A program made the position numbers and the translations under genes. This document shows, in pieces, positions 726-25,687 of a DNA stretch of 32,000 nucleotides; position 1 is the stretch's first letter; each line of letters begins with the position of its first letter. The notes under the pieces are model-generated. The model had not been told where the DNA came from, did no database searches, and saw nothing but the letters and a program-made list of their open reading frames with translations. The stretch is from the NCBI RefSeq assembly GCF_051201565.1, contig NZ_CP179200.1:90001-122000 (forward strand), read 5' to 3'. This DNA comes from Pseudothioglobus sp. nBUS_23 (GTDB lineage Bacteria > Pseudomonadota > Gammaproteobacteria > PS1 > Pseudothioglobaceae).

Positions 726-778
726 CACCCTCCCTCACACATCAAACGAAATTTGGAATTCTATTTGAGCTATAATTT
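726..778 (+). repeat. Array intergenic element, copy 1 (variant B: core + TTCTATTTGAGCTATAATT)
   Basis: Reads CACCCTCCCTCACACATCAAACGAAATTTGGAATTCTATTTGAGCTATAATTT. The core ACATCAAACG lies 67 nt upstream of the ATG at 806. Confidence 0.9.
771..776 (+). promoter_or_regulatory. Candidate -10 box (TATAAT) inside variant-B element
   Basis: Perfect TATAAT 30 nt upstream of the ATG at 806. The same box is conserved at 5994..5999 and 7937..7942. No convincing -35 hexamer was found. Confidence 0.35.
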
Positions 779-805
779 AACTTTCTATTTATCTCATTCT
801 GCTTA

Positions 806-2068
806 ATGAAAAAAATATTATTTATATTTGTTTTGTCTTTGTACTCTATTCAAGGATTGGCCTCATCATGTCCTGATGGAAGCGAACCAGTTAAAAGTAT
901 CTCTGATGATGGCACTTATTTTGTTTTCAATTGCCCTGATCAAGTATCTCCTGATACTGATACTAATAAAGGTCTTATTAAATCTAATGACATTAGCTTT
1001 CCAGGTAAATTTTATACAACAGAAATTAGCGCCTGTAATGCCTTAGTCCCCGTATCTTTTAGCTTGAATTCTTCTATTAATCTTGTTAAAGGTTTAGTTG
1101 GCTATGATTGGCATGCTGATTGGGAGGCAAACAGTAATTCCATGAATGTTTATCATCAAAAAATTACAGAACCAATGAATATGCTAATGGCAGCAACGCA
1201 TAACGCATTGGGAAACGATTATCAAGCTAATATTAGCATAGCTAAAAACTTGTTAATAGAACTGGCTAAAACAGATACCTTGTATGACAGTATTGGCTAT
1301 ATTGAAGTCAGAAAGAAACCTGGTTGCTATGCCGGTGGTGATATAAATGCACCCTGCTGGTACCATGAATATCAATTCGCCAGTAACGTATTTTCAAATT
1401 ACATGATTACTGCATTATGGTTGCGAGATGAACTCAACGAGCAGGAGTTTGAGATTGTAGATAAGTACATCAAAAAGATGTACAAAAAGTTTCTACAGCC
1501 AATAGAACTTCAGGAAGAGGAGCAGGGTTTTTATGCCATGGCTAATGGTGGCACATCAATTCTTGCATACGCATCTTGGACAAATGATAAAGAGCTTGCT
1601 GCAGAAGAAATAAATCACAGGTTTAAAGAAATGGATAGGCTATTCTATGATGATGGCTACATAAACAACAATTCATTCAGAGGATATAGAGGTCAATGGT
1701 ACCACTCTTATGGATTAGATATTGCACTTGGTTACGTCTATATTGCGGAATTATGGGGCGCAGAGATTCCAGACAAACTTCAAAACAAATTAGTTAAAGC
1801 ATCAGAAGTTGTAAACCTAGCTATAACTGATTGGGACAAGTTTAAAAGCAGAAAGTATGACGGCAATCAAAGTAATGCTATTAATGACCCAAATAATGCC
1901 ATAAAGCACACTCACCAAGTCGCAATTGCAATAGACACACTAATGAAAATTGTCACTGGTGTAGAACTCGAGTACGACCCTGTGTACCTTCAAAAAAGAA
2001 AGTACCAAATTGGAAAGTCCAACGGAATAGATGAATTGATTGGATTTCCCCCAAATTGTATTAATTAG
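806..2068 (+). CDS. Array family member: signal peptide + CPDGSEP Cys-loop module + all-alpha alginate-lyase-like (PF05426-like) body
   Basis: N-terminus is MKKILFIFVLSLYSIQGLASS-CPDGSEPVKSISDDGTYFVFNC. The body has segments reminiscent of the alginate_lyase fold (ALGNDYQANISIAKNLLIELAK; ALWLRDELNEQEFEIVDKYIKKM; DDGYINNNSFRGYRGQWYHSYGLDIALGYVYIAELWG). The fold assignment is from memory of the family, not a search. Confidence 0.8.
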   Translation: MKKILFIFVLSLYSIQGLASSCPDGSEPVKSISDDGTYFVFNCPDQVSPDTDTNKGLIKSNDISFPGKFYTTEISACNALVPVSFSLNSSINLVKGLVGYDWHADWEANSNSMNVYHQKITEPMNMLMAATHNALGNDYQANISIAKNLLIELAKTDTLYDSIGYIEVRKKPGCYAGGDINAPCWYHEYQFASNVFSNYMITALWLRDELNEQEFEIVDKYIKKMYKKFLQPIELQEEEQGFYAMANGGTSILAYASWTNDKELAAEEINHRFKEMDRLFYDDGYINNNSFRGYRGQWYHSYGLDIALGYVYIAELWGAEIPDKLQNKLVKASEVVNLAITDWDKFKSRKYDGNQSNAINDPNNAIKHTHQVAIAIDTLMKIVTGVELEYDPVYLQKRKYQIGKSNGIDELIGFPPNCIN

Positions 2069-2090
2069 GCATCAGCGTTAGGACACTCTA

Positions 2091-2140
2091 CTTTCCCTTA
2101 CACATCAAACGAAATTTGGACTTTAGTTCAAGTTGACATA
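2091..2140 (+). repeat. Array intergenic element, copy 2 (variant A: core + CTTTAGTTCAA)
   Basis: Reads CTTTCCCTTACACATCAAACGAAATTTGGACTTTAGTTCAAGTTGACATA. It starts 22 nt after the stop at 2068. Confidence 0.9.
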
Positions 2141-2205
2141 TATCTGATTGTTTAAATTTAGCCATGGTATTCTTAATTGAATCCTAGTTAAACCTTAATA
2201 CTTTT

Positions 2206-3870
2206 ATGAAAAAACTATTCCTTCTCTTAATTCTTTCCTTCTTCTCAGTTCAAAGTTTAGCGGGGTCCTGTCCAGATGGAAGTGAGCCAATCAAGAGTAT
2301 TTCAGAGGACGGCACTTATTTTGTTTTCAACTGCGGTGTTAGCAATGAACAATCATCTTCAAATAGCAACGATTCATCTTCCTCTTCCTCAGTAAAAGCT
2401 GTTAAATTTGAATCATTTGTGGATACTGAGACATCATCAAGTTGTAAAGACCTCGATACAAATTTTTATCGTAAGAGCTCCAATAAGTGCTCAATCATTG
2501 CTGTCCTAGATAGAAAGCCTAAATTTCCAGGCGGACATTGGTTCAAGAATGTTTGGCAAACATCAGGATTGCTTATCCATCGAGTTAATAAAAATGGAAA
2601 TCTTGAAATAGTTGGTAAAGCTGAAAACATTCAAGTAGAGACAAATGAGAAAACAGATCGGCCTGGCCAAATGGAGATTGCAACCATTGAAGTTAATACA
2701 GAAGAGCTTGGCTCAAAATCTGTTGAAGTCATTAAAAACCCAATTGTTGAAATACCAGCCTCTACTATTCGAATGGTCTTGACTGATGTTAATCAAGATG
2801 GCTTAACTGAATTAGTCATTGCAGGTATGCTTGAAGATGGTAGGCATCAGGATTCATCATGGAAGGATGTGAATTATATCTATGACTTTGAGACTGAAAG
2901 CTATACAAAGTTTGGCAAACCAATGTATTCACATGACTTCGTAGCTGGAGATTTAGATGATGATGGCTATGATGATTTTATTGATATATCCTGGGGTGGA
3001 GATCATCAGGGATCGGGGATTGGTGTGTGTAATGGAAAAAGCTTGGAGTGCGTTTATCAGAACCATCCTACAAGACTTCAAACATCTAAAACATCACTTT
3101 CTGTCTATCCTAACAAAAAAGGTGGCATCTTATTTCACAACTGCGATAAGGAGTATTTAAGTTGGTGCTGGTCAGAGGTGACTTACAATAATTGGGGTAT
3201 AGAGTTAAAGCCTTTAGACAAGTATATTGCTAGTAAAAAGCCTGATAAGGAGGAGCTATTTAATAACTGGTCAGGATGGGAGCAAAAAAGAAAAGGATGG
3301 GCAGTGCCTGGATATGAAACGAGCGAAAGATTTAAATTAATCAGCGAATCCTATCGTTCTCATCAATTCGACATGGATGGCGATGGTGACTTTGATACTG
3401 CCACCTGGAAAGAAAATCGACTTTGCAAAAAATCAGCTTCAGAAAAAGTATATCAAATTACCTCCGATTGTAAACCTGTAGGAGAGATGTTTTTCTTTAG
3501 AAATGATAATGGCAAGTTTACTGTTTCGGATAGGCATGAGATTGACCCTGGCGCAACAACGCGCTTATACAGCTTCGACATAAATCAAGATGGCCATATG
3601 GATTTTTATGCCTTTAGAGACGAGTGGAATACATTTGAGTGTAATAATCAAATTAATAATATATTCTTTGGTAATGGCGATGGAACTTTTAGGAGGCCGT
3701 CAGTTAAAGAGCAAAGTGAAATCTTTGGGAACTACGGCTGTGAAATACAATCATATTTCTTCGACTTTGAGGGTGACAGCTATAGAACTTTCTTTACTCA
3801 CAAATACTCAAAGAATTTCTCTGGAAGTAGGGCAGTATATGTTGGTGTGGAGAAACTTGCTAATAATTAA
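2206..3870 (+). CDS. Array family member: signal peptide + Cys-loop module + Ser-rich linker + FG-GAP/VCBS repeat body
   Basis: N-terminus is MKKLFLLLILSFFSVQSLAGS-CPDGSEPIKSISEDGTYFVFNC, then SNEQSSSNSNDSSSSSS. DxDxDG-type repeats are present (LTDVNQDGLTELVIAG, VAGDLDDDGYDDFIDIS, FDMDGDGDFD, FDINQDGHMDFYAF). Confidence 0.85.
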   Translation: MKKLFLLLILSFFSVQSLAGSCPDGSEPIKSISEDGTYFVFNCGVSNEQSSSNSNDSSSSSSVKAVKFESFVDTETSSSCKDLDTNFYRKSSNKCSIIAVLDRKPKFPGGHWFKNVWQTSGLLIHRVNKNGNLEIVGKAENIQVETNEKTDRPGQMEIATIEVNTEELGSKSVEVIKNPIVEIPASTIRMVLTDVNQDGLTELVIAGMLEDGRHQDSSWKDVNYIYDFETESYTKFGKPMYSHDFVAGDLDDDGYDDFIDISWGGDHQGSGIGVCNGKSLECVYQNHPTRLQTSKTSLSVYPNKKGGILFHNCDKEYLSWCWSEVTYNNWGIELKPLDKYIASKKPDKEELFNNWSGWEQKRKGWAVPGYETSERFKLISESYRSHQFDMDGDGDFDTATWKENRLCKKSASEKVYQITSDCKPVGEMFFFRNDNGKFTVSDRHEIDPGATTRLYSFDINQDGHMDFYAFRDEWNTFECNNQINNIFFGNGDGTFRRPSVKEQSEIFGNYGCEIQSYFFDFEGDSYRTFFTHKYSKNFSGSRAVYVGVEKLANN

Positions 3871-3918
3871 ATTAGATTAAAAAAGTTTAATAATTAATTC
3901 ATTGAGGATTGATACTAG

Positions 3919-3970
3919 CCATTCACTTACACATCAAACGTAATTTGGACTTTAGTTCAAATTGAGTCTA
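3919..3970 (+). repeat. Array intergenic element, copy 3 (variant A)
   Basis: Reads CCATTCACTTACACATCAAACGTAATTTGGACTTTAGTTCAAATTGAGTCTA. The core lies 60 nt upstream of the ATG at 3990. Confidence 0.9.
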
Positions 3971-3977
3971 ATTAAGG

Positions 3978-3983
3978 TATAGT
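3978..3983 (+). promoter_or_regulatory. Candidate -10 box (TATAGT) exactly 6 nt upstream of the start codon; possible leaderless transcript
   Basis: The layout is TTCAAA-N16-TATAGT-N6-ATG(3990). The same TATAGT-N6-ATG geometry recurs at 10505..10510 before the ATG at 10517. Confidence 0.3.
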
Positions 3984-3989
3984 TTATGT

Positions 3990-5939
3990 ATGAAAAAACT
4001 ACTCTTATTTTTAATTTTATTTTTCTTTTCAATACAAAGTTATGCAAACTCCTGCCCTGATGGCAGTGACCCAGTTAGGAGTATTTCTGCTGATGGTACT
4101 TATTTCGTCTTTAACTGCAGTAGTAATAGTGAAAATGCTTCTCAGTCCAATAATTCAGCTTCAACTGAGGAAAAAACTCAAATTGAGTGGGTTGATGGTT
4201 TATATGCAAAATCAATAACAGATGAATTCAATGTCTTAAGCAAAGATTTCAGTAAGTCTGTCGAATCTGGGGGTTCAATGATTACACCCCTTGGTTCGGG
4301 TGATTTTTCAGGAGACGGCATGCCTGAAATTGTTTACGGCATACAATATTGGGATTTAAAAAAAGGCTCTCATATTAAGCCAATATTTTTGACAAAAACT
4401 CCTGGCAAGGGTTTTTCTTTGTTTAGACCAATAATGGATATAGTTCCATATACTTGCAATGCTAGAAGTTCGGTCATTGAGGATTTCAATGGAGATGGGG
4501 TCAACGATATTTTCATTGCTGACACTGGAGTTGACTATGATCCATTTCCTGGCTGCCAAAACTCATTAATCTTGAGCGCTCCTAACGGCAAATTTATAAA
4601 TGCTACTTCAAACTTACCACAAATATTAGACTTTACTCATGGAGTTACCAGTGGAGATGTTGACTCAGATGGGGATATTGATTTGTTTGTTACGCAAGCA
4701 GGCATTGACGTTAATGTACCCCATTATTTCTTAAGAAATAATGGCAAAGGTAGATTTACTAAAATTCCAGATGGGCAACTATTAGATAGGGGTCTTTCTT
4801 ATATATCGTGGAAACCTGGTAATAAAAGAAGAAACATTTTCTATACTCCAGGTTTGGAGTTTGTTGATGATGATGACAAGCTTGATTTAATTCTTTTAAG
4901 TGGCAAGCTTGAAGGTGTTGACAACAACAGAATAATTTTTGGTTCGAATTCTGGATTCAAAAAAAGCGATGCCCTTGAACTTCAACCCGGAAGATTTGGC
5001 AGGAAAAGTGCTGGATACAATTATCTCGTAACAGATATTGATAATGATGGTGATAACGATATATTGATACTTCATGTAACCATAAACCTATTGATAGAGC
5101 GGAGTCATCTCGGCATAGATCTTCAAGTTCTTATCCAAGAAAATAATCGAAAATTCGTCGATAAAAGTAATTTTTATTTTCCAGGAATTACCTTTGATTA
5201 TGGAACGTGGAACAAATCGCTTAATTTGATAGATATAAATAATGACGATAAAAATGATATTGTATTGGTTTCTGGTAACGGAATTGACGACCCATCCAAA
5301 CAGCAAATAGGAAGTCAAATTAAAACAAGCCCGCCTAAGGTGTTGATTAGACAAGAGGATGGCTCATTTAGACCTCTAAATAATGATTTACTTACTGGGG
5401 GAGAAAAAAACACTCTTGCAGGTATTCGCCCAATCGATATAGATAATGACGGAGATATAGAATTTGTTGTCCATAAAGGCTCAGAAAAAGGGTTTACTCT
5501 TCAAGTACTCGAGTTAACAACTAATAAAGATGAATCCACGTTGGAGTCCTTTAGACCCACCCATAGCAATCGCTCGTCAGATACAGTTCTAAGTAGCCCG
5601 TTATTTGATGGACGCTATTCTTTTACTATATCACGCTTCAATGAAAATGATGGAAGTCAGCGCCTAGGAAATGGTTATATTGAAATCAACAATGGAATCA
5701 TGACTGTGGCAAAAGAGGGTCGCACTCTAGATAAAAGAATTGGTTCAATAGACTTGTATGATTCATTTAAAGGTCAAATTGATAAGGAAGGCAATATTAT
5801 CAGTTCGCTTAAAATAAATGTCTTGACTGGAAAGACCCATTTATTTTTAGTAGATTTAAATGGGAGTATCGATAGCCCATTACAAGGTGAGTGGGACCAT
5901 TATTTTGACGTGATTTTGAAGTTGGATAAAAAAGAGTAA
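3990..5939 (+). CDS. Array family member: signal peptide + Cys-loop module + FG-GAP/VCBS body + C-terminal FDGRYSF module
   Basis: N-terminus is MKKLLLFLILFFFSIQSYANS-CPDGSDPVRSISADGTYFVFNC, then a Ser/Asn linker. Repeats include FSGDGMPEIVYG, EDFNGDGVNDIFIAD, TSGDVDSDGDIDLFVT, VTDIDNDGDNDILIL, LIDINNDDKNDIVLV and IDIDNDGDIEFVV. The last ~113 aa are homologous to the C-terminus of the 7972..10113 product. Confidence 0.85.
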   Translation: MKKLLLFLILFFFSIQSYANSCPDGSDPVRSISADGTYFVFNCSSNSENASQSNNSASTEEKTQIEWVDGLYAKSITDEFNVLSKDFSKSVESGGSMITPLGSGDFSGDGMPEIVYGIQYWDLKKGSHIKPIFLTKTPGKGFSLFRPIMDIVPYTCNARSSVIEDFNGDGVNDIFIADTGVDYDPFPGCQNSLILSAPNGKFINATSNLPQILDFTHGVTSGDVDSDGDIDLFVTQAGIDVNVPHYFLRNNGKGRFTKIPDGQLLDRGLSYISWKPGNKRRNIFYTPGLEFVDDDDKLDLILLSGKLEGVDNNRIIFGSNSGFKKSDALELQPGRFGRKSAGYNYLVTDIDNDGDNDILILHVTINLLIERSHLGIDLQVLIQENNRKFVDKSNFYFPGITFDYGTWNKSLNLIDINNDDKNDIVLVSGNGIDDPSKQQIGSQIKTSPPKVLIRQEDGSFRPLNNDLLTGGEKNTLAGIRPIDIDNDGDIEFVVHKGSEKGFTLQVLELTTNKDESTLESFRPTHSNRSSDTVLSSPLFDGRYSFTISRFNENDGSQRLGNGYIEINNGIMTVAKEGRTLDKRIGSIDLYDSFKGQIDKEGNIISSLKINVLTGKTHLFLVDLNGSIDSPLQGEWDHYFDVILKLDKKE

Positions 5940-5948
5940 GTCAAAAAC

Positions 5949-6000
5949 CACCCTCCCTCACACATCAAACGAAATTTGGATTTCTATTTGAGCTATAATT
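5949..6000 (+). repeat. Array intergenic element, copy 4 (variant B)
   Basis: Reads CACCCTCCCTCACACATCAAACGAAATTTGGATTTCTATTTGAGCTATAATT. It starts 9 nt after the stop at 5939. TATAAT lies at 5994..5999. Confidence 0.9.
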
Positions 6001-6033
6001 AAATTTTTATCTACAAATCCTCCTTTCTATCTT

Positions 6034-7857
6034 ATGAAAAAAATATTATTTATTTTTGTGCTGTCTTTGTATTCAATTCAAGGATTTGCTTCATCATGCC
6101 CTGATGGCAGTGAGCCAGTAAGGAGTATTTCTGCTGATGGAACTTATTATGTTTTTAGCTGCGAGGGTGGAAACAAAAAAGCATCTTCATCTAATACGAA
6201 TATAAATGTAGGGCCAGTAAGCATTAATATCCACGATGAGTACCATTATAATAATTTTCCTGGACTTGTCAGTTTAGACTTTGCCTTTGCGATTAGAACA
6301 GCCTTTTATGGATATGTCCAAATACCCTTGATTGATGTCAATGATGATGGACACAAAGATTTGATATTTAATTCAGACCCACCTTACGCTGGACCTAATG
6401 TTGAAGTTACACAAAACACTGCGAATTTAGTGGTATCTCCTTGGCTTGAGGAGTGGAAAGAATACGATATGATTGATACACTCGAATCACCAAATACCAC
6501 ATTTGGAAGAGGTGATAACATTCGAGTCGCTGACTTCAATGGTGACGGCAGAATGGATATGGTAATCGCGTCAAGTAGTCTGGGACAAATTGACGGTCGG
6601 TTTGATTATGGAGGCGTAATAGTACTTACAAATACAGGTAAAGGTATATTTACTCCCAAGTATATTGGCAAAAAACAATTCACTCACGCACACGGTGTTG
6701 GCGATGTAGATAGTGACGGTGATATTGATATTATCTATCATCAATTAAATGATAAAAATATTTTGTGTGCTTACAACGACGGCAAAGCAAATTTCACAGT
6801 CAAACCGTGTCTGCGAACACCAATAGATACAATACGAGGATTCATTCAAAATGTTTGGGGTTTTCGTATTGCCGACTATGATAACGACGGATTTAATGAT
6901 GTTCTTGTTTTAGCACACCACGGCCCTAAAAAAACAACCTTCTTTCAACATCAATATCGTAACAACCAACTAAAGAACCCAGGAATATTTTGGGGCAATG
7001 GAAGTGGCCAGTTCTCTTGGAATGATATGACATTTATCGACTTATCTGAATGGAATGATAAACCATTTGACCAAGGTGAAGTTTACTTTGATGGTTCAGG
7101 AGCAAGTCAAACCACAGTAGATATTGGTAATGATGGTGATGTTGATATTGCTATCAATATATTATCCAAGTGGACTGTAGGTAGTGCGGTTGTGTTAGTT
7201 GAAAATTTAGGTAATCGAGAGTTTACGACTAAAGAGATTACTCGTTCAAAGTACCTAAAAGAAGACCCCAAACGTTTTCGCACAATTCAGGACAAACATA
7301 CACAAGCCAGTACTCCTGTTAATTTGCACGAAGGTATCGTTTGGAACCAGGCTTGTATGCCAAAGTTTATTGATTTAAATAGCGACAACATAGATGACAT
7401 GATTTGTGAAGGTATCTCTTATGTTGTTACTAATGAAATTGCAAAAAGTGATTGGGAGAATCATTCACCCGAGCATCAACGAATTACTCCTTTTGCAAAT
7501 ACGAGTGACTGGACTTGGGATTGGAGTATGGGCCAAACTTATTACATCTTAGACGAAGAAAGCAATGTGCTTGATGAAGGTCATATCTTTAACAAGACTA
7601 GAAGTGACTTTTCTAATGAATTCAAACGTGGTGGTTACAAAATCAAAACAGTTGGGTATAGATTTCAGAATGACTCTACTAGTCAAGCACAAATAGCAAC
7701 AGAGATTGCTGCTCAAGAGTTAATGGATGAAATATTAGAGGAAGTTGACGACAAAGTTTCTTTACCTGTTATTAAAGAAAAAACATCAGCAGAGATAGCT
7801 GCTCAAGAGTTAATGGATGAAATATTAGAAGAATTAGAAGCAGAATCTAGTCAGTAA
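6034..7857 (+). CDS. Array family member: signal peptide + Cys-loop module + FG-GAP/VCBS body + acidic helical tail with internal duplication
   Basis: N-terminus is MKKILFIFVLSLYSIQGFASS-CPDGSEPVRSISADGTYYVFSC. Repeats include VADFNGDGRMDMVIAS, GVGDVDSDGDIDIIYH, IADYDNDGFNDVLVLA and VDIGNDGDVDIAINI. The tail carries EIAAQELMDEILEE twice. Confidence 0.85.
   Translation: MKKILFIFVLSLYSIQGFASSCPDGSEPVRSISADGTYYVFSCEGGNKKASSSNTNINVGPVSINIHDEYHYNNFPGLVSLDFAFAIRTAFYGYVQIPLIDVNDDGHKDLIFNSDPPYAGPNVEVTQNTANLVVSPWLEEWKEYDMIDTLESPNTTFGRGDNIRVADFNGDGRMDMVIASSSLGQIDGRFDYGGVIVLTNTGKGIFTPKYIGKKQFTHAHGVGDVDSDGDIDIIYHQLNDKNILCAYNDGKANFTVKPCLRTPIDTIRGFIQNVWGFRIADYDNDGFNDVLVLAHHGPKKTTFFQHQYRNNQLKNPGIFWGNGSGQFSWNDMTFIDLSEWNDKPFDQGEVYFDGSGASQTTVDIGNDGDVDIAINILSKWTVGSAVVLVENLGNREFTTKEITRSKYLKEDPKRFRTIQDKHTQASTPVNLHEGIVWNQACMPKFIDLNSDNIDDMICEGISYVVTNEIAKSDWENHSPEHQRITPFANTSDWTWDWSMGQTYYILDEESNVLDEGHIFNKTRSDFSNEFKRGGYKIKTVGYRFQNDSTSQAQIATEIAAQELMDEILEEVDDKVSLPVIKEKTSAEIAAQELMDEILEELEAESSQ
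7701..7834 (+). repeat. In-frame direct repeat (two ~44-nt copies, period 90 nt) within the acidic tail of the 6034..7857 CDS
   Basis: 7701..7744 (agagattgctgctcaagagttaatggatgaaatattagaggaag) and 7791..7834 (agagatagctgctcaagagttaatggatgaaatattagaagaat) differ at 2 positions in the first 42 by hand alignment. Confidence 0.85.
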
Positions 7858-7892
7858 ATAAAGCCCCTCTCGACCTCGTAGATAGATATATA

Positions 7893-7943
7893 CTTCCTCA
7901 CTTACACATCAAACGAAATTTGAATTCCTTTTGAACTATAATT
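7893..7943 (+). repeat. Array intergenic element, copy 5 (variant B)
   Basis: Reads CTTCCTCACTTACACATCAAACGAAATTTGAATTCCTTTTGAACTATAATTT. TATAAT at 7937..7942 lies 30 nt before the ATG at 7972. The sequence just upstream (7861..7892) is also homologous to 695..725. Confidence 0.9.
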
Positions 7944-7971
7944 TAACTTTCTATTTATCTCATCCTACTTA

Positions 7972-10113
7972 ATGAAAAAAATATTATTTATTTTTGTGCT
8001 GTCTTTGTATTCAATTCAAGGATTTGCCTCATCATGCCCTGATGGCAGTGAGCCAGTAAGGAGTATTTCCGATGATGGTACTTATTATGTATTTAACTGC
8101 TCAGAGCCAGTTTCAACTTCTGAAGATTCAAGCCCTCGCTCTAGCAAACTACTTCCAGACAAGCTTAAAGAAATCAAAGTGGTAAAGGATTGGGAGCCCA
8201 TTGCTGATTGGGAGTCTGTAAAAGAATATGCTAAGCTGGTTCCAATTCCCAGATGGAAAAATGAAAGTATTTATGATCAATATGTTGACAGAAATTGTAG
8301 TGAGAGATTTACGAGCGTAAACCCTTATCCAGGTGATAATCCTTCAGCAAGAATTTTTGCGCATTGTCAATCATACCTTCATGCAGCGTCTTCAAATAAC
8401 CCACAAATACTAGGTGACATTTTACTGTCCTGGGCCTCAGCTTCAAAAGATCCAATGTTTGTTGTGCCTTATGAGGTTGAAACCCATGAAATCAAACATT
8501 CTGTTGCAGGCTACAATATCCCATCAGCCATTGGCACATTTGCCCAGTCTTATGCATTCTGGTATGACGAAATAGCATACACGCCAGAGGAGCGTCAACG
8601 GGTAGATGATTACATGACTAAGAAACTAATGGAGCAAAAATTTCTCCCGATAAGTCGTGACTACAATGGACCGCGCATTAAATGTGATATTAATGATCTT
8701 AGTAGCGTTTACAGTGAACGAACCGGCACAAATAACTGTGGCAATGTGCGAATGAAAGTAGCAGTGGGTGAAATTATGCTTGGTTTTAGATTAGAAAACC
8801 AAACTTTGTTAGATAAAGGGCATGATGATATGTATGTCGTGCATGCCTTTATTAATGAAGACGGTATTAATATCAATCATGCTTCAAGGGGCGGTAATAC
8901 AGTGAACTACTCTTGGGAATACACATACTACTCAAGTCTATTAGCAGAGATATATGATTCAGTTGGTTATGACTATTTTGAGCATACGCTTCCTCGCGGG
9001 GCAAAAGTTCATGAGTATTTAAGCTTTAATTACAGGCTATTAAAAGATTTTAAGCTGACTGCCCAATGGGCAAAATATAATATTGGGTCATTGTGGCTGC
9101 CCTATGATCAGATCAAGAATTTATCACAACAATTATATGAAAAAACTACTAATGGGGGATGGGCTTATAGCTGGGAGGATGGTGATAAAGAGTTTGTAAA
9201 AGCACACACTAAATTTGTGAAGCGTTATATGCCAGAGCTTTACAATTTTGATGTAAAAAATTACATGGGTTCAAATTTTAATGATTCACCTAATTTTGGT
9301 GTTCATCCCTACATGCTCCATATAGGTAATAACGTATTAGAAGAAAATTCTAATACTTCAAAGATTGAACTTTTACGTCAAGCTAAGTTACAAGAAGAAA
9401 TTGATCAATGTGCTAAAGCAACTTCTGATAGTGGGTTTAATGGCGAATATGAGGCCAAATGGTTTCGAGATCATTGGAATGGCAATGGTGAGTGGGAGTT
9501 TGTAGGCTCAGAGCCTCTCATTCTAGATCAATGCGAAGGTGAATTTGAAGGCTTAAAACAATTTGATCCTCGCCCTACACCAGCAGTTAGAAAAAAGCTA
9601 ATTGTCAAGTATCAATCAAATGGTGACATTTCAATTAAGGGTGATTTGAATTTATATACTATTGATGACCTTAGATATACCGAACTTTATGGAAATATTA
9701 ATGATGGTGAAATTTCAGGAGTTTGGGGCTTTGGTAATCGCCTAAAGATAGAGTTTTCCAAGAAACCAAAGCCAACAGAACTCTTTGATGGTCGCTATAG
9801 TTTTGAATTGTTTCGTTATGCAGAGGATGAAGCTGACGATATAGGCAATGGCATCATTAACATATCTAATGGTCAAATAACTATTGATGAGAGTAATCGA
9901 AATTTGCAAACAGGAGATTCAGATTTGTATGATACTTTTAGTGGTCAAGTTGATAAAAATGGAGACGTATCTGGCTCTGTTAAACTCGATATTTATAGTT
10001 CGGGACAAAAATCAGAAGAATTTTTCTTTGAAGGCCTGATAGATGAAGAAATATGGGGAGAATCTCCTATAGAAGACTTTTTCAAAGTTTATATGAAACT
10101 AAAAAAGCAATAG
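7972..10113 (+). CDS. Array family member: signal peptide + Cys-loop module + alginate-lyase-like all-alpha body + C-terminal FDGRYSF module
   Basis: N-terminus is MKKILFIFVLSLYSIQGFASS-CPDGSEPVRSISDDGTYYVFNC. The body resembles the 806..2068 body (ERQRVDDYMTKKLMEQKFLPI versus FEIVDKYIKKMYKKFLQPI; NEDGININHASRGGNTVNYSWEYTYYSSLLAEIYDSVGYDYF). The C-terminal 111 aa are homologous to the tail of the 3990..5939 product. Confidence 0.85.
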   Translation: MKKILFIFVLSLYSIQGFASSCPDGSEPVRSISDDGTYYVFNCSEPVSTSEDSSPRSSKLLPDKLKEIKVVKDWEPIADWESVKEYAKLVPIPRWKNESIYDQYVDRNCSERFTSVNPYPGDNPSARIFAHCQSYLHAASSNNPQILGDILLSWASASKDPMFVVPYEVETHEIKHSVAGYNIPSAIGTFAQSYAFWYDEIAYTPEERQRVDDYMTKKLMEQKFLPISRDYNGPRIKCDINDLSSVYSERTGTNNCGNVRMKVAVGEIMLGFRLENQTLLDKGHDDMYVVHAFINEDGININHASRGGNTVNYSWEYTYYSSLLAEIYDSVGYDYFEHTLPRGAKVHEYLSFNYRLLKDFKLTAQWAKYNIGSLWLPYDQIKNLSQQLYEKTTNGGWAYSWEDGDKEFVKAHTKFVKRYMPELYNFDVKNYMGSNFNDSPNFGVHPYMLHIGNNVLEENSNTSKIELLRQAKLQEEIDQCAKATSDSGFNGEYEAKWFRDHWNGNGEWEFVGSEPLILDQCEGEFEGLKQFDPRPTPAVRKKLIVKYQSNGDISIKGDLNLYTIDDLRYTELYGNINDGEISGVWGFGNRLKIEFSKKPKPTELFDGRYSFELFRYAEDEADDIGNGIINISNGQITIDESNRNLQTGDSDLYDTFSGQVDKNGDVSGSVKLDIYSSGQKSEEFFFEGLIDEEIWGESPIEDFFKVYMKLKKQ

Positions 10114-10115
10114 AA

Positions 10116-10170
10116 ACTCCCTCCCTCACACATCAAACGAGATTTGGACTTTAGTTCTAATTGACATATA
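10116..10170 (+). repeat. Array intergenic element, copy 6 (variant A)
   Basis: Reads ACTCCCTCCCTCACACATCAAACGAGATTTGGACTTTAGTTCTAATTGACATATA. It starts 2 nt after the stop at 10113. The core lies 68 nt upstream of the ATG at 10198. Confidence 0.9.
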
Positions 10171-10197
10171 ATCCTATTTTTTTTAGGAGAGACTTAG

Positions 10198-10431
10198 ATG
10201 ATGCGATTTGCTAAATACGAACAACACTTAAAGTGGTTCGCACTATTCCTTGGTATCCTAAGCACAATTGCCATTATCAATGACTTGTATCCTTATACAA
10301 TGTTTATTGGACTTCCTTTTTGCTTAATCTGGGTTTACTGTGCTTGGCTTCATACTGAAAAACAATTGAAATGGATTAATATAATCTTTACTGGGTTATA
10401 TACATATGGAATAGTGAATTACTATATTTAG
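10198..10431 (+). CDS. Small (77 aa) predicted 3-TM membrane protein, bracketed by two copies of the array element
   Basis: There are three hydrophobic stretches (WFALFLGILSTIAIINDLY, MFIGLPFCLIWVYCAWL, WINIIFTGLYTYGIVNYYI). A strong SD (AGGAGA) lies 6-7 nt upstream. No array-family N-terminal module is present. Confidence 0.65.
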   Translation: MMRFAKYEQHLKWFALFLGILSTIAIINDLYPYTMFIGLPFCLIWVYCAWLHTEKQLKWINIIFTGLYTYGIVNYYI

Positions 10432-10442
10432 CATTAATTAAT

Positions 10443-10493
10443 ACCCCTCCCTCACACATCAAACGGAATTTGGACTTTAGTTCAAATTGAGTC
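10443..10493 (+). repeat. Array intergenic element, copy 7 (variant A)
   Basis: Reads ACCCCTCCCTCACACATCAAACGGAATTTGGACTTTAGTTCAAATTGAGTC. The core lies 61 nt upstream of the ATG at 10517. Confidence 0.9.
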
Positions 10494-10504
10494 CTATTAA
10501 GAGG

Positions 10505-10510
10505 TATAGT
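10505..10510 (+). promoter_or_regulatory. Candidate -10 box (TATAGT) 6 nt upstream of the start codon; possible leaderless transcript
   Basis: The layout is TTCAAA-N18-TATAGT-N6-ATG(10517), the same geometry as at 3978..3983. Confidence 0.3.
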
Positions 10511-10516
10511 TAGATT

Positions 10517-12088
10517 ATGAAAAAACTATTCCCTCTCTTAATTCTGTCCTTCTTATCAGTCCAAAGTCTTGCGGGTTCATGCCCTGATGGCAGTGAGCCA
10601 ATTAAGAGTATTTCAGAGGACGGCACTTACTTTGTATTCAACTGTGGTGGTGGCAATAAACAATCATCTTCATCTACTGCTAATTCATCAAATGTCAATT
10701 CAAAAACAAAAGCATTAGCTGGTATTTATATTGAGAATGATCCCAATATTAATTTCTTTGCTCCGCCATCACATCCTCCACCAACAAGAGTGCTATACCC
10801 TGGAACAGGTGGATATTTTAAGGCTGATTTTAATAATGATGGTCTAACTGATCTTATCTATGCTGGTGGAATGCATGCAGAAAACTATGGCTGTTCTTAT
10901 CAAGATAGATGTACTCTCCAACAGCAGGATGATGGTATTAAACCACAACCTGCACTTTATATGGGCGGCGCTGATGGTAAGTTTAACTACTCGCCTGAGC
11001 TGTTGATTGATAATCGTGACAATAAAGGCATGTCAGTTGGAAGGCAGTTACTAATCGCAGACTATAATAATGATAAAGTGTTAGATATTTATATTGCAGA
11101 CCACGGACAGACGCATCAAAACCAAGGTTATCGTGATAGTTATTATCTAAGTCAGCCAAATGGAACGTGGCTCGAGTCAAGTAACACCCATCTTAGTGAT
11201 AATAACTTCATAGCGTATGCACACGGCGCGGCTACCGGCGATATTGATAATGATGGCGATATGGATGTTGTGCTAACTGACTGGAGAACGTTTTGGTGTT
11301 TAATGAATGATGGTAGTGGGTTTTTAGCAAAACGTCAATGTGGCGGCAGTAATGCATTTGGTCTGGAGCTAGCTGATATGGACAATGATGGCAACTTAGA
11401 TGCTATATTTGGCGGTAATGAATATGGGGGCAATGGTTTCCCAACTGGAATTTACTGGAATGATGGTCAAGGAAATTTTATACCCTATACCATAACCCGA
11501 CTTAAGCAACACAAAGTATGGGGGGGAATATCTGAAGTATCGGCCTGGGATTTAGACAATGACGGTGATATGGACATAGTTTATGGTAGGAATAAAAAAT
11601 CAATTAAAGGAGCTGCGATACAAATTATAGAAAACTTAGGTAACAAGAAGTTTAAGGACCATGGAATCTTTCCAGTAGATAGTAACTTTAGTGTTTTTAT
11701 CATGTCTATTCTATTCAATGATTTAGATTCTGATGGTGATTATGATTTGTATCTTGCTTCAAAATCTCATTTGACTGATGGAACAGTTTTTATAAACAAC
11801 GGTAATTTTGATTTTACAATGATTAAGCCAGATGATAGACCGTCACCTAAATCATTAGGACTTTATGAAATGTTAGATGATAGCAGTGTAGTAATACCTA
11901 AAAAAGTATTAGAAGAACTTGCCGCAGAAGAAGAAGCTAAAGCTAAAAGTTATAGAGAAGCCTTAGCAGCTAATCTCAAACGTATCGCTGAAAAAGCTGA
12001 TAAGGCAACAGAAAATGAAACTGAGCAATCGATTGAAGATGAAATCGCAGCGTTTGAAGCTGAACTAGAAGCAGAACTTGGTCAGTAA
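10517..12088 (+). CDS. Array family member: signal peptide + Cys-loop module + FG-GAP/VCBS body + acidic coiled-coil-like tail
   Basis: N-terminus is MKKLFPLLILSFLSVQSLAGS-CPDGSEPIKSISEDGTYFVFNC, then a GGGNKQSSSSTANSSNVNS linker. Repeats include KADFNNDGLTDLIYAG, IADYNNDKVLDIYIAD, ATGDIDNDGDMDVVLTD, LADMDNDGNLDAIFGG, AWDLDNDGDMDIVYG and FNDLDSDGDYDLYLAS. The tail reads EELAAEEEAKAKSYREALAANLKR..IEDEIAAFEAELEAELGQ. Confidence 0.85.
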   Translation: MKKLFPLLILSFLSVQSLAGSCPDGSEPIKSISEDGTYFVFNCGGGNKQSSSSTANSSNVNSKTKALAGIYIENDPNINFFAPPSHPPPTRVLYPGTGGYFKADFNNDGLTDLIYAGGMHAENYGCSYQDRCTLQQQDDGIKPQPALYMGGADGKFNYSPELLIDNRDNKGMSVGRQLLIADYNNDKVLDIYIADHGQTHQNQGYRDSYYLSQPNGTWLESSNTHLSDNNFIAYAHGAATGDIDNDGDMDVVLTDWRTFWCLMNDGSGFLAKRQCGGSNAFGLELADMDNDGNLDAIFGGNEYGGNGFPTGIYWNDGQGNFIPYTITRLKQHKVWGGISEVSAWDLDNDGDMDIVYGRNKKSIKGAAIQIIENLGNKKFKDHGIFPVDSNFSVFIMSILFNDLDSDGDYDLYLASKSHLTDGTVFINNGNFDFTMIKPDDRPSPKSLGLYEMLDDSSVVIPKKVLEELAAEEEAKAKSYREALAANLKRIAEKADKATENETEQSIEDEIAAFEAELEAELGQ

Positions 12089-12090
12089 TT

Positions 12091-12130
12091 AACCTCCCTC
12101 ACACATCAAACGAAATTTGGACTTTAGTTA
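12091..12130 (+). repeat. Array intergenic element, copy 8 (terminal copy, truncated after CTTTAGTTA; no downstream + strand gene)
   Basis: Reads AACCTCCCTCACACATCAAACGAAATTTGGACTTTAGTTA and starts 2 nt after the stop at 12088. Confidence 0.9.
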
Positions 12131-12142
12131 TGTACCTGATAA

Positions 12143-12496
12143 TTATTGGCGTAGAATTTTTTCCATCACTTTTCCACTGGCAAGCTCGTCAATCATCTTA
12201 TCTAAGTATCGGATTTCTTGCATAGTAGACTCTTTGATGTCCTCTACTCTAACCCCACATACAACACCCTGAATTAGAGTGCGACAAGGATTTAATTGGG
12301 GCGCTTCTTTAATAAAGGTTTCAAAATCAACCTCTTGTTTTAATTGTTCTCCAAGTTCTTTTTCGTTGTAGCCTGTTAGCCATTGGATAATCTGATTCAC
12401 TTCAGTCTTTAGGCGTCCTTTTCTCTCTGCTTTTTGAATGTACAGTGGGTAAATACTTGCAAAGCTCATTTTATAAATGTGGTGTGCTTGGGACAT
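12143..12496 (-). CDS. DUF2200 family protein
   Basis: The N-terminal [34 protein letters not shown] matches the conserved DUF2200 signature as I recall it (MSFASVYP.YVQKAEKKGRTK.EVD.VI.WLTGY). Confidence 0.75.
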
Positions 12497-12499
12497 ATT

Positions 12500-12552
12500 A
12501 TCAAACGAAGTTGGACTGTCTTAGGGTATCAAACTAAATTTGGACTTTAACT
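12500..12552 (+). repeat. Two degenerate half copies of the array element lacking the C-rich 5' part
   Basis: 12500..12524 reads ATCAAACGAAGTTGGACTGTCTTAG and 12528..12552 reads ATCAAACTAAATTTGGACTTTAACT. Both are in the same orientation as copies 1-8, between two minus-strand genes. Confidence 0.7.
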
Positions 12553-13225
12553 ACAGTTTATTTTCCCAGATTGCTTCCTTGATAGCCGGAATAAGCATTG
12601 ATGAAGTAGGCCAATCTTCGCAATGCTGATAGCGGTGAGCAAGCTGAATTATCCCTTTTTGATCAACGACAAATTCTCCTGGCAACTGCCATGGGCTATC
12701 TACCAGGCCACCATCTGTGCCGTGACGAGACTTCTGCAATTCTGCACCAGTCTCATAATCGATATTAAGGTACTCATCAGGCGCGTCATAGACAATTTGT
12801 GAAGGCTTGCCTTCCAACAAGTCATAGGCTTCATAGACACTAAATGTTGGGTCACATAAGACAGGGCAGGGTATGCCGTTTCTTTGACTGTATTCTTTTG
12901 AACGCTCAGGCTCGCCTTGACCAATCACGACGACAGAGGCGCCCAGCTTAATGTAATCCGCGTATTCATTTTTTAGACTATTGGCACGGTCAACCCCGCA
13001 ACTACAACCATAATGCCTCCAGAACATGATTAATGCTGGACCATTACTCCAAAAATCTTGCAAATGAACTAATTTCCCCGATGTATCTTGCAATTCAAAA
13101 TCAGGAGCCAAGTCCCCAACTTGGAGCGGCACTTTATCCCACCGAAGACGCGTTGGTCCTTTTTTCCAAAGATCTAACCACTCTTTTTCAGCAGCTTCGA
13201 TTTGGTTATCTACTATTGATTTCAT
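12551..13225 (-). CDS. AhpC/TSA (peroxiredoxin-like) thioredoxin-fold protein
   Basis: APDFELQDTSGKLVHLQDFWSNGPALIMFWRHYGCSCG is a typical redoxin N-terminal pattern with Cys near the start of helix 1. An SD-like AAGGGG lies upstream. Confidence 0.75.
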   Translation of the reverse strand: MKSIVDNQIEAAEKEWLDLWKKGPTRLRWDKVPLQVGDLAPDFELQDTSGKLVHLQDFWSNGPALIMFWRHYGCSCGVDRANSLKNEYADYIKLGASVVVIGQGEPERSKEYSQRNGIPCPVLCDPTFSVYEAYDLLEGKPSQIVYDAPDEYLNIDYETGAELQKSRHGTDGGLVDSPWQLPGEFVVDQKGIIQLAHRYQHCEDWPTSSMLIPAIKEAIWENKL

Positions 13226-13404
13226 ATTTACCCCTTTTTAACTAGTTATGACACTTGTATTATAGCTCAAAAAAATTCATCTCAGGTTTCGTAAAACGAA
13301 AATAGGATTCTTTATCTAAACTATATCTAATCTTCATCTAACTTTATTTCTGCCAAATTAAAATTTGATTTTTTTTAAAATGATTAACCAATAAAAAACG
13401 ATTT

Positions 13405-23469: not shown

Positions 23470-24174
23470 TTAGGCTTCTGATTCTTTAACAGCAACATTC
23501 CAAATAATCAAACCAAATAGGATTTTGTTAACAAAATCCGCAAGGTTATATACGATATTCAGAGTGCCGTTATCTACGGAGCCCATCATGTAGCCGAAAA
23601 TGTATCCTAATGGATAAATTGCCCAGCCAACGAGCACGATAAGTCTCAGCGCATTGAAAGCTGCTTTCACACCAGCATTAGCCTCTGCGGCTTTACTTGC
23701 CTCTCCACCAAAGATTTCCCAGATGATAACAGCCCAACCAATCATACCAATAATGAATCCTAGGCTTGCTGACATAACGCCTGCTTCACCAAGGTAACCA
23801 CCAATGAGCATGACCAGGGTACCTATGAGAAGTCTCCAGAACGAGCTAGAGGAAACTGCAGCACCTACGGCCTTAAGAATAATAAAGAATTCAATCATTA
23901 ATAGAGGCACTGTAATTAGCCAATCAATGTATCGGTAGACAATTGGAGACTGAGCCTCACCAGCGATGAGCGAAGCAACCCAGTAGTCTCTCATGTAGAG
24001 ATAATGAACACCTGCAACTAATGTTACTAGTCCAGCAACTGTCATTGAAAGTCTCCACTCCTTTTTTACTGCCATTCCTTCATAAAAAAAGAACACAGTT
24101 GCAGCAACCATAGCTACAGAGACAATCCAGAAAGAAACGCCGACAAAATCGCCGTCTTGTAAAAAATGTTCCAT
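23470..24174 (-). CDS. Proteorhodopsin (light-driven proton pump, green-tuned type)
   Basis: The C-terminus NLADFVNKILFGLIIWNVAVKES is near-identical to classical proteorhodopsin, with the Schiff-base Lys in DFVNK. RYIDWLITVPLLMIEF provides the D/T/E motif (equivalents of D97, T101, E108) and Leu at the position-105 equivalent. VHYLYM retains the His75 equivalent. The SD AAGGAG lies upstream. Confidence 0.95.
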   Translation of the reverse strand: MEHFLQDGDFVGVSFWIVSVAMVAATVFFFYEGMAVKKEWRLSMTVAGLVTLVAGVHYLYMRDYWVASLIAGEAQSPIVYRYIDWLITVPLLMIEFFIILKAVGAAVSSSSFWRLLIGTLVMLIGGYLGEAGVMSASLGFIIGMIGWAVIIWEIFGGEASKAAEANAGVKAAFNALRLIVLVGWAIYPLGYIFGYMMGSVDNGTLNIVYNLADFVNKILFGLIIWNVAVKESEA

Positions 24175-25096: not shown

Positions 25097-25687
25097 TTAT
25101 CTAGTGTGAAGTGAGTATTTTTCGAAGCCTATGTCGCCAGACCATCGCCATGCGGTAAAGACGAATGAGTTAGTGGTTATTGAAGTATGAAGAACGCTAG
25201 AGGGGTGATAAATGTAGGTATTTGGCCCTTGAACTTTTGACTCATTCGATTCAGTTGTCCACGAAGCTTCTCCATTAAAAATGAAAAATGTTTCCTCGGC
25301 TGCATGCTGTCTCGGTCCATAGACAATGTTTTTATTCTGAAGCCACAGACCGACACGAACAGTGTCATTGAAAAAAATACCATCAGGTCCCACTAGTTCA
25401 GCCATCGGCATCTGATTTGCCAAATCATCCGGTATTCTCCCTTCCCTTAAATCAGAACTAGTCCACTTAATATTCGGAGATGCTTTTAAAACCAGACTGT
25501 TTAAAAAGTGACCTTGTATGTTGAGACTAGATTCAACTTCATCTAAAAATGGGTTTGTAAATGTTTTAGGCTCTTTTATTTGATGACTAGCATCAATAAG
25601 TGCATCTGCTGCTTGCTTGCCGCCTTTACGGTCTTCCAAATTAAATATTTCTGATAGAGACAAATATAGCTGCTTTAATGGCTCCAT
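25097..25687 (-). CDS. Cupin-fold protein resembling the DMSP-lyase (DddL/Q/W, PF16867) family, with atypical active-site residues
   Basis: YGPRQHAAEETFFIFNGEASW resembles the family motif YP.H.H.AEE.Y.vl.GeA.W. Here the first His is not conserved and Phe replaces the motif Tyr. A second cupin His lies in YHPSSVLHT. The gene starts 6 nt downstream of the Rieske gene. Confidence 0.5.
   Translation of the reverse strand: MEPLKQLYLSLSEIFNLEDRKGGKQAADALIDASHQIKEPKTFTNPFLDEVESSLNIQGHFLNSLVLKASPNIKWTSSDLREGRIPDDLANQMPMAELVGPDGIFFNDTVRVGLWLQNKNIVYGPRQHAAEETFFIFNGEASWTTESNESKVQGPNTYIYHPSSVLHTSITTNSFVFTAWRWSGDIGFEKYSLHTR

Follow-up and report, generated by a model that had tools for sequence, protein, structure and literature searches.

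A clade-wide polar intergenic repeat of SUP05/Arctic96BD-19 gammaproteobacteria as a candidate joint between gene-sized units

In a 32,000-nt stretch of the genome of Pseudothioglobus sp. nBUS_23 (contig NZ_CP179200.1, positions 90,001 to 122,000, called the window throughout this paper) the genes of an array for secreted proteins are separated by one and the same short spacer element. The locus therefore raises the question of what this spacer is, and whether it belongs to the array or to something larger. On balance, we consider it probable that the spacer represents a local cluster of a clade-wide, polar intergenic repeat, the core of which is a joint between gene-sized units. Bacteria of the SUP05/Arctic96BD-19 clade rank with the ocean's most abundant gammaproteobacteria, both sulfur-cycling and heterotrophic, and include animal symbionts. 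If our reading is correct, a concrete sequence can be named at which the gene order of the SUP05 clade is shuffled. For symbiotic relatives, reshuffling of the genome was reported, confirmed by PCR and ascribed to generic mobile elements (PMC4612132).

Using a cutoff of 3 mismatches, 8 copies of the 21-mer ACACATCAAACGNAATTTGRA were found in the window, all on the + strand (737, 2100, 3929, 5960, 7904, 10128, 10454, 12101). The chance expectation was 0.03, and none of 100 shuffled sequences gave 8 copies. A preliminary description of the locus had listed the same 8 copies in one orientation, with coordinates 9-12 nt lower and the C-rich lead-in included. The invariant core, CCCTCCCTC-ACACATCAAACGAAATTTGGA-CTT, is asymmetric, reads in one direction and comprises about 33 bp, from -9 to +24 relative to the 21-mer. 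Its C-rich lead-in CCCTCCCTC was whole in 5 of the 8 copies and degraded in the other 3 (CTTTCCCTT at 2100, CATTCACTT at 3929, TCCTCACTT at 7904). All copies sit between two + strand open reading frames (ORFs), with the exception of the last one, which faces the DUF2200 gene on the - strand. Searching with a hidden Markov model (HMM) detected no core in the remaining 19 kb of the window. Overall, the repeat is a mosaic of an optional module A, the core and a right-hand module. The individual parts are as follows.

654-727, + strand: optional upstream module A, imperfect palindrome around GGGGGAGCCCC
728-761, + strand: core copy 1 (CCCTCCCTC plus 21-mer) with type-A right flank (ATTCTATTTGAGC-TATAAT), nhmmer 42.8 bits
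2091-2124, + strand: core copy 2, C-tract reduced to CTTTCCCTT, type-B right flank, nhmmer 42.4 bits
3920-3953, + strand: core copy 3, C-tract degraded, nhmmer 34.5 bits
5951-5984, + strand: core copy 4, type A, nhmmer 44.2 bits
7862-7894, + strand: module A, 3' part only (AGCCCCTCTCGACCTCGTAGATAGATATATACT)
7895-7928, + strand: core copy 5, TTTGAA variant, type A, nhmmer 29.9 bits
10119-10152, + strand: core copy 6, candidate left joint of a 77-aa gene cassette, found by pattern scan and nhmmer
10445-10478, + strand: core copy 7, candidate joint between the 77-aa cassette on its left and the 523-aa gene on its right, found by pattern scan and nhmmer
12092-12125, + strand: core copy 8, candidate solo joint where the array ends, the gap being convergent and the DUF2200 gene (- strand) 21 nt downstream, 48.9 bits
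12500-12524, + strand: degenerate copy (ATCAAACGAAG-TTGGACTGTCTTAG) with a 1-nt deletion, seen by eye, under the nhmmer threshold
12528-12551, + strand: degenerate 3'-half copy (ATCAAACTAAATTTGGACTTTAAC), nhmmer 13.6 bits, E = 0.03, 84% identical to a reference copy

The two half copies at 12500 and 12528, already mentioned in the preliminary description, are real but weak and lie antisense to their flanking genes. Between core end and following ATG there were 48, 85, 40, 53, 47, 49 and 42 nt, and between the preceding stop codon and the C-tract 3-77 nt. In substance these values agree with the earlier ones. The near-constancy of the distance to the ATG, however, reflects the common ancestry of the 5' module and not an independent constraint. 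Module A comprises about 85 nt upstream of the core, and its first approximately 30 nt resemble a diverged core. A terminator or promoter within module A was considered and rejected, as its GC hairpin lacks a T-run and no usable hexamer spacing was present. A C-terminal extension of the upstream protein through the core was rejected likewise, because by eye the core continued the reading frame past the stop codon at 12088, but was out of frame past that at 5939.

How far the element extends beyond the array was analyzed by a 21-mer scan with one genome per species. At least 114 loci contained the 21-mer; among the matches listed about 110 belonged to the SUP05/Arctic96BD-19 clade and 4 were chance matches. 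Carriers were Ca. Thioglobus, Ca. Pseudothioglobus and single-cell genomes labelled “Piscirickettsiaceae” or “gamma proteobacterium”, besides short contigs binned elsewhere that carry SUP05-type genes. With the core HMM (nhmmer) 279 matches were obtained in 750 kb of fetched loci from dozens of genomes of the clade, all chosen for an exact core, with up to 8-9 matches per 8 kb. The core consensus was identical across 14 genomes, and even weak copies held CCTCACACATCAAACGAAATTTGGACTTT at 80-100% per position. The neighbouring genes form a miscellany of GNAT acetyltransferases, an arginase-family enzyme, fumarase C, ferredoxin, methyltransferases, an ammonium transporter, an ArsR-permease pair, PagL, a DEAD-box helicase and MORN-repeat proteins. 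An array-specific element is thus not what the scan found. The preliminary description had held that random scattering, unrelated to the array genes, would speak against its proposal; the repeat is indeed dispersed beside unrelated genes, its distribution, however, is not random. A literature search found no paper with the core sequence, and none on an intergenic repeat or a promoter motif of SUP05 bacteria.

Some further observations were made on the sequence of the copies. Two core subfamilies, ACAGATGAAACGAAGTTTGGA and ACACATCAGAGAGGATTTGGA (GAGAGG for AAACGA), each occur in several genomes (loci L046, L070, L076, L093, L037; L017, L053, L072, L086, L112). Palindromic head-to-head versions of the core 5' half were seen at two loci (L077 ~383-443, L007 6447-6494), for example CCTCCCTCACACATCAAAC-15 nt-GTTTGATGTGTGAGGGAGG, where a 19-bp hairpin would form. 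Chance matches to the 21-mer lie in a 42-nt tandem repeat at the contig end of a Treponema metagenome-assembled genome (MAG; L001 3715-3777). A phage origin was rejected, as 5 matches on viral contigs all lay within coding sequence, lacked the C-tract or CTTT flank and were regarded as chance.

The position of the copies relative to genes was strict. None of 138 copies lay within an ORF, and in co-directional gaps 68 copies were oriented sense and 3 antisense. Among gaps of at least 40 nt the element occupied 26% of the co-directional, 35% of the divergent and 44% of the convergent ones, a distribution which is neither purely promoter-like nor purely terminator-like. A bipartite core, with the 5' half retained in convergent and the 3' half in divergent gaps, was rejected, since 13 half copies followed no pattern and full cores dominated all contexts.

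In order to relate the element to gene order, homologues with at least 60% amino acid identity were taken from different genomes, and the neighbour across a gap of at least 40 nt was scored as homologous or not. This protein-level test was chosen because the conserved 5' and 3' ends of paralogues inflate one-sided nucleotide flank matches. The neighbour was found conserved as follows.

Element in neither genome: 52 of 105 gaps in all genomes, 10 of 24 in single-cell and isolate genomes
Element in both genomes: 8 of 87 gaps in all genomes, 4 of 27 in single-cell and isolate genomes
Element in one genome only: 0 of 109 gaps in all genomes, 0 of 35 in single-cell and isolate genomes

For all genomes Fisher tests gave p = 9e-10 for both versus neither and p = 1e-20 for one versus neither; the latter comparison yielded p = 3e-5 in the single-cell and isolate subset. 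As no gap with the element in one genome only had a conserved neighbour (0/109), the element never appears or disappears alone, which argues against a transposition of the type known for miniature inverted-repeat transposable elements (MITEs). Next to this test stand the identity profiles. Pairs sharing only the upstream gene showed an identity of about 0.6-0.7 up to the core, about 0.95 within it and background from +24 on. Pairs sharing only the downstream gene gave the mirror image with a switch at about -9. Hence, the breakpoints lie in the core and are not scattered through the spacer. Among 43 inter-core units found in another genome at a nucleotide identity of at least 80%, outer flanks were conserved on neither side in 37, on one side in 5 and on both sides in 1. 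Fumarase C was found at 97% identity in different neighbourhoods.

The clearest single case is the gene for the 77-aa membrane protein in the window.

10198-10431, + strand: 77-aa membrane-protein gene with a core on each side

The segment from 10115 to 10490, which comprises core, 77-aa gene and core, was 91% identical to a locus from a different genome with different neighbours (L112), and the homology stopped inside the two cores. The identical 77-aa protein was indexed in 141 blocks of a public assembly collection. From these blocks 10 contigs provided at least 4 contexts in addition to the two already named: after Mem_trans, after PfkB, after MFS_1, and between Flavodoxin_2 and TctA. In each of them one core lay upstream of the gene, and another, in some cases truncated, followed 11-16 nt past the stop codon. 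The Flavodoxin_2/TctA context was the commonest and was present in many independent assemblies. Together with the neighbour test and the identity profiles, these contexts make the cassette boundary or recombination site the best supported of the suggestions in the preliminary description.

Further traces are in agreement with such an exchange. Of 72 copies with -10/ATG geometry 37 run into ORFs of less than 40 aa, many of the form “MKKLL...stop”. Solo cores were found 4-30 nt from the stop codon of a convergent gene. Truncated cores break at many positions (after ACG, GAA, AAAT, AATT, ATTT or ATTTG). No integrase or transposase domain was found in the 30 ORFs scanned in the 32-kb window. The varied truncation points, the missing integrase or transposase in the window and the lack of dyad symmetry favour homology-driven over site-specific recombination. 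A short hydrophobic peptide ORF was noticed separately. It comprises 20-31 aa with the motif LLTFVFVMV.(I/M)Y.GW.VI and starts at the +30 ATG of the repeat at three loci (L088, L099, L028). It is 26 aa long in L088 and L099, a shorter copy of 20 aa lies near the AhpC gene in L045 (~3420-3482), and it may be a real small membrane protein and not a stub.

Core and right-hand module together look like a sigma-70-type promoter, judging by their sequence. The commonest form of the right-hand module is CTTTAGTTCAAGTTGAYATAYAATCNTAGT-ATG-AAAAAACT, with variants containing inserted segments. In the canonical form TTGGAC is followed after 17 nt by TAYAAT and after 6 more nt by ATG, a leaderless layout. 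TATAAT or TACAAT occurred exactly 17 nt past the TTGGAC of the core in 31% of the copies with no comparable peak at other offsets, and an ATG was located at +30 in 37 of 199 copies. All 18 genes of at least 100 aa with a start not more than 36 nt from the core carried TAnnnT at -12 to -7 and no Shine-Dalgarno sequence, as compared to 7% of 504 background genes with TAnnnT at this position. Among them are genes of unrelated cytoplasmic enzymes, in which the start codon is the ATG of the repeat. This arrangement, a -10 hexamer at -12 to -7 without Shine-Dalgarno sequence, is also that of the window genes at 3990 and 10517. When copies were anchored on the -10 motif, TTTGGAC was the best-conserved upstream stretch (~90%). 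The link to the 5' side of the downstream gene, as previously suggested, found further support in the window, where a -10-like hexamer lies between core and ATG in all gene-preceding copies except 2100, a poor promoter match. No support was found for an anti-Shine-Dalgarno likeness of CCTCC. The predicted -10 boxes of the window are listed below.

771-776, + strand: TATAAT, 29 nt before ATG 806, no Shine-Dalgarno sequence between
3978-3983, + strand: TATAGT, 6 nt before ATG 3990 (leaderless geometry), TTCAAA 16 nt upstream
5994-5999, + strand: TATAAT, 34 nt before ATG 6034
7937-7942, + strand: TATAAT, 29 nt before ATG 7972
10167-10172, + strand: TATAAT, 17 nt past TTGGAC, then a leader containing AGGAGA, then ATG 10198
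10505-10510, + strand: TATAGT, 6 nt before ATG 10517 (leaderless geometry), TTCAAA 18 nt upstream

Type-A copies have leaders of about 22-28 nt, from predicted start to ATG, without Shine-Dalgarno sequence. In copies 3929 and 10454, where TATAGT is 6 nt before the ATG, there is another -35 candidate. The 77-aa gene keeps its distance between -10 box and ATG despite an exchange of the type-A and type-B upstream segments, indicating that the -10 box travels with the gene and that the core is not an obligatory -35 region. An AhpC-like gene in the window (12551-13225, - strand) has a type-A-like TTTGAGCTATAAT box upstream (13259-13271) without core and with a leader containing AAAGGGG; hence, the -10 module also exists without the core.

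How these parts might work together can be outlined as follows. The sequence left of the core would belong to the 3' end of the preceding gene, and that right of it, with -10 box and start codon or short leader, to the following gene. In the canonical layout transcription would begin at the A of the ATG, and the mRNA would be leaderless. Since such a gene would not be translatable from read-through transcription, the presence of one element for each gene would be accounted for. With hundreds of near-identical cores in the same direction relative to the genes, recombination could delete, duplicate, move and exchange units of core, promoter and gene. Homologous recombination is the simplest candidate, because the breakpoints inside truncated cores are not fixed. 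Head-to-tail arrays would be built in this way, and solo cores and “MKKLL...stop” stubs would be left behind as scars. The array of the window would then consist of head-to-tail units of core, promoter, signal peptide with N-terminal module and variable body, into which one unrelated 77-aa cassette was inserted.

Several points weigh against this interpretation. Homologous recombination does not account for the persistence of this particular core of 29-33 nt, each position of which is 80-100% identical even among weak copies. Possible reasons for this invariance are a constant renewal through recombination and exchange among members of the clade, a protein recognising the core, or a combined Rho-loading tract and UP/-35 element. 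In the single-cell and isolate subset the comparison of both versus neither reached only p = 0.058. Element densities are biased upward by the choice of loci with an exact core. With respect to the promoter, canonical -35/-10 spacing was present in only 1 of the 7 gene-preceding window copies (10128). In the three type-A copies TATAAT follows the position equivalent to TTGGAC after only 11-12 nt, which again implies that the core is not an obligatory -35 region. A quarter to a third of the copies keep the full core although they are located in convergent gaps too tight for a promoter. A generic sigma-70 scan of the AT-rich window was uninformative (53 sites versus 50.6 expected), as was a generic terminator scan in such DNA. 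Moreover, the copies are related by descent, so that their common spacing does not count as independent evidence; promoter and leaderless start are predicted from geometry.

We were also aware of the fact that much of the comparative data came from MAGs, where repeats can cause mis-joins. Several points, however, count against chimeric assembly as the main explanation. Assemblers break at the core and do not join across it: Logan contigs of the window's organism span exactly 728-2126 from core to core, one contig starts at 12100 within core copy 8 (L115), and about 25 of 136 exact copies lay within 150 nt of a contig end. Single-cell and isolate genomes showed the same trend as all genomes, and the contexts of the 77-aa gene recur in independent samples. 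Most joints share only about 33 nt, which is shorter than the expected final k-mers of assemblers and would speak against chimeras. In one deposited MAG a Nextera adapter (CTGTCTCTTATACACATCTCCGAGCCCACGAGAC...) directly follows the core at the contig end (L009 ~1-60), a contamination. Element-bearing contigs were furthermore observed in bins labelled Rhodospirillales, Alphaproteobacteria, Rhodobacterales, euryarchaeote, Flavobacteriales, Bacteriovoracaceae and PS1 clade (L017, L029, L054, L072, L079, L092, L103, L105, L108, L109, L114). L054 has a SUP05-type gene and the flank of L017 is a near-duplicate of the L046 flank; these contigs are probably mis-binned DNA of the SUP05 clade.

Other explanations have to be weighed against the joint between gene-sized units. 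The core could be the promoter or operator of a regulon, bound by a clade-specific transcription factor or an alternative sigma factor, and its link to rearrangement would be incidental and arise since accessory genes happen to carry this promoter. That the whole core of 29-33 nt is kept in all contexts and all genomes points to a protein that recognises it, and the polar position upstream of genes, many of them for secreted proteins, would fit as well. A regulon does not, however, account for the 37 stubs, in which a purposeless ATG and about 15 nt of signal peptide run into a stop, or for full cores in 30 convergent gaps, where the stop codon of the next gene is only 4-30 nt away. The downstream genes have no common functional theme, and ATG offsets vary (25, 30, 35, 40-53, 85 nt). 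So does the spacing between core and -10 box, and its difference of 5 nt between subtypes argues against a fixed activator geometry. By eye, no fit was seen to the consensus sequences of integration host factor (IHF; WATCAANNNNTTR), FNR, sigma-54, sigma-E, sigma-32 and the Pho box. We regard a pure regulon as rather unlikely. Very doubtful is an insulator between transcription units, with the C-rich 5' half as Rho-loading (Rho utilization, rut) site and the 3' half in the next promoter. Indeed CCCTCCCTCACACATCAAAC is about 55% C and free of G in a genome of 35% GC, it starts 2-13 nt past many stop codons with no intrinsic terminator between, and the element is sense to the upstream gene and frequent in convergent gaps. 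This C-rich, G-free tract, however, comprises only about 20 nt; rut regions as a rule extend much further and show no sequence conservation. In the 33 divergent gaps, a third of those bearing the element, there is nothing upstream to terminate, some copies directly follow a classic terminator of hairpin and T-run (L041, L019, L078), and half copies are few and without context bias.

Arrays of co-oriented, unrelated single-gene units bounded by a repeat, and cassettes found in many contexts, could also point to the core as the crossover site of a dedicated site-specific recombinase, in an integron-like system with a promoter per cassette. Homology that switches exactly at the core edges, an otherwise unexplained core invariance and the rare palindromic versions (2 among about 280 copies) would agree with it. 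Against this stand the lack of an integrase or transposase in the window, the many truncation points without a visible fixed cleavage point, the lack of dyad symmetry or an attC-like fold, and the spread of copies over the genome instead of one array beside an integrase, and we hold such a recombinase for decidedly unlikely. Only a little more credit, and still an unlikely one, is given to the wider idea of an undiscovered recombination system that would recognise the 33-bp core and cross over there, an integron-like cassette economy across the chromosome. Each cassette would bring its own, often leaderless, promoter and could be inserted at any of hundreds of joints. A selfish repeat of the MITE type or the repetitive extragenic palindromic (REP) type, transposing alone and without role for neighbouring genes, would account for high copy number, the mosaic and modular build, the many degenerate or truncated copies and the broken assemblies. 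It appears highly improbable, as core and flanks are asymmetric without terminal inverted repeats, alignments of copies revealed no duplicated flanks as target-site duplication, and fold tests found no palindromic stem-loop of about 35 bp as in REP sequences and bacterial interspersed mosaic elements (BIMEs). Moreover, the orientation bias of 68:3 and the complete lack of conserved neighbours at one-genome-only gaps are hard to explain in this way. Least credible is a structured cis-regulatory RNA or a small RNA. It would fit the sense orientation, and by eye type-B copies could form a weak hairpin AAUUUGGA/UUCAAAUU. The consensus fold of 24 long copies (RNAalifold), however, gave -1.98 kcal/mol without compensatory pairs, a single copy gave z = +0.56, and Rfam returned no match at the gathering threshold and, up to E = 1, only two chance-level matches off the element. 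A repeat search of the window found no inverted-repeat partner of the core either; the two folds and this repeat search bear out the earlier statement that the element has no hairpin or inverted-repeat symmetry.

The genes of the array itself encode secreted paralogues.

1-650: seventh family member, C-terminal part, running off the left edge, ORF listed as 99-650
806-2068, + strand: secreted paralogue, N-terminal module coding region 806-934
2206-3870, + strand: secreted paralogue, N-terminal module coding region 2206-2337
3990-5939, + strand: secreted paralogue, N-terminal module coding region 3990-4118
6034-7857, + strand: secreted paralogue, N-terminal module coding region 6034-6162
7972-10113, + strand: secreted paralogue, N-terminal module coding region 7972-8100
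10517-12088, + strand: secreted paralogue, N-terminal module coding region 10517-10648

The first approximately 43 residues, comprising the signal peptide and a SCPDGSEP...C module, are common to the array proteins at 63-95% amino acid identity. This N-terminal module of about 25 aa with two cysteines (SCPDGSEPxKSISxDGTYxVFNC) is covered by no Pfam family. Beyond residue ~43 the bodies are unrelated or not more than 33% identical, and contain FG-GAP/VCBS repeats (FG-GAP_3), a weak alginate-lyase-like region or no Pfam match. The core had been described as far better conserved than the coding bodies. It is conserved, but so are the first ~43 codons, and the conserved unit of the window is thus larger than the core and runs from the core through the 5' untranslated region to codon ~43. 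In the segment 1-650 no stop codon interrupts frame 3 from base 3 on. The frame encodes an FG-GAP DxDxDG repeat, and its product matched residues 394-473 of the 523-aa protein at 42%. The proteins encoded at 3990 and 7972 have a C-terminal domain of about 115 aa in common. The 3' end of the 607-aa gene contains a 90-nt tandem duplication (window 7680-7849, 84% identity) that repeats the acidic tail “AAQELMDEILEE”. An exact-protein look-up gave no record for the 523-aa protein. The 420-aa and DUF2200 proteins were matched exactly only in contigs identical to the window and from one sequencing run (SRR31779810), and consequently provided no extra contexts. Synteny with the single-cell genome AG-313-C17 (L045, 91% nucleotide identity), the closest relative among the genomes compared, begins at the AhpC stop codon (window 12562 versus L045 3536). 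Array and DUF2200 gene are absent from that locus; hence, both lie within a variable region. Further downstream, the window encodes a proteorhodopsin-type protein (23470-24174, Bac_rhodopsin, E = 2.5e-48) and a cupin resembling dimethylsulfoniopropionate (DMSP) lyase (25097-25687), consistent with the heterotrophic Arctic96BD-19/Pseudothioglobus side of the clade.

If core, promoter and gene do travel as units, consequences arise for the clade as a whole. A portable promoter with leaderless translation would be predicted for a gammaproteobacterial clade in which, to our knowledge, leaderless starts are not expected to be common. The fragmentation of assemblies and bins at particular points, and the element contigs in bins of unrelated taxa, would be explained. 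The 33-bp sequence would serve as a marker for mapping the flexible genome and for spotting stray SUP05 contigs in metagenomes.

Finally, the element was compared with known systems. JUMPstart/ops elements, located upstream of operons for surface polysaccharides and secretion, are also conserved asymmetric non-coding elements in sense orientation before genes for exported products; the ops motif GGCGGTAG, however, is absent from the SUP05 element, and ops occurs once per operon leader and not per gene. BIME/REP and enterobacterial repetitive intergenic consensus (ERIC) sequences of E. coli are likewise intergenic, modular or mosaic and oriented relative to transcription units, but REP and ERIC are hairpin palindromes acting via RNA or protein binding, in contrast to the hairpin-free SUP05 core. 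Leaderless promoters with a -10 box adjoining the ORF were described for Deinococcus-Thermus (PMC12340547) and Actinobacteria (PMC3898074). There, too, the -10 hexamer ends 6 nt before the start without a Shine-Dalgarno sequence. In those phyla this is a general layout of gene starts, whereas in SUP05 bacteria it is tied to a dispersed repeat, of which about a fifth to a third of the copies have it.

Closer likeness was found to two other systems. Neisserial intergenic mosaic elements (NIME) with dRS3, and Correia elements, are high-copy, clade-specific, modular intergenic repeats as well, tied to chromosomal rearrangement and to variable genes for surface or secreted proteins, and Correia elements can supply promoters to adjacent genes. 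The defining mark of Correia and dRS3, however, is a pair of terminal inverted repeats, to which Correia adds a TA duplication and an IHF site; the SUP05 core has no such symmetry, runs in one direction and is without presence/absence polymorphism in conserved gaps. Arrays of integron attC sites, for instance the chromosomal ones of Vibrio, also consist of same-orientation direct repeats between unrelated single-gene units, with one cassette in several contexts and neighbourhoods that switch at the repeat. Unlike them, the SUP05 element has no imperfect attC palindrome and, in the window, no adjacent intI, attI or Pc; each unit apparently has its own promoter, and copies are found chromosome-wide, also beside genes of the housekeeping type, for example those for fumarase and ferredoxin. 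In its apparent function the element comes nearest to neisserial intergenic mosaic and Correia elements and to the cassette boundaries of integrons, but it lacks the defining features of each. The description that fits it best is that of a new family of polar intergenic mosaic repeats, which would serve as recombination joints and which carry or adjoin a predicted promoter.

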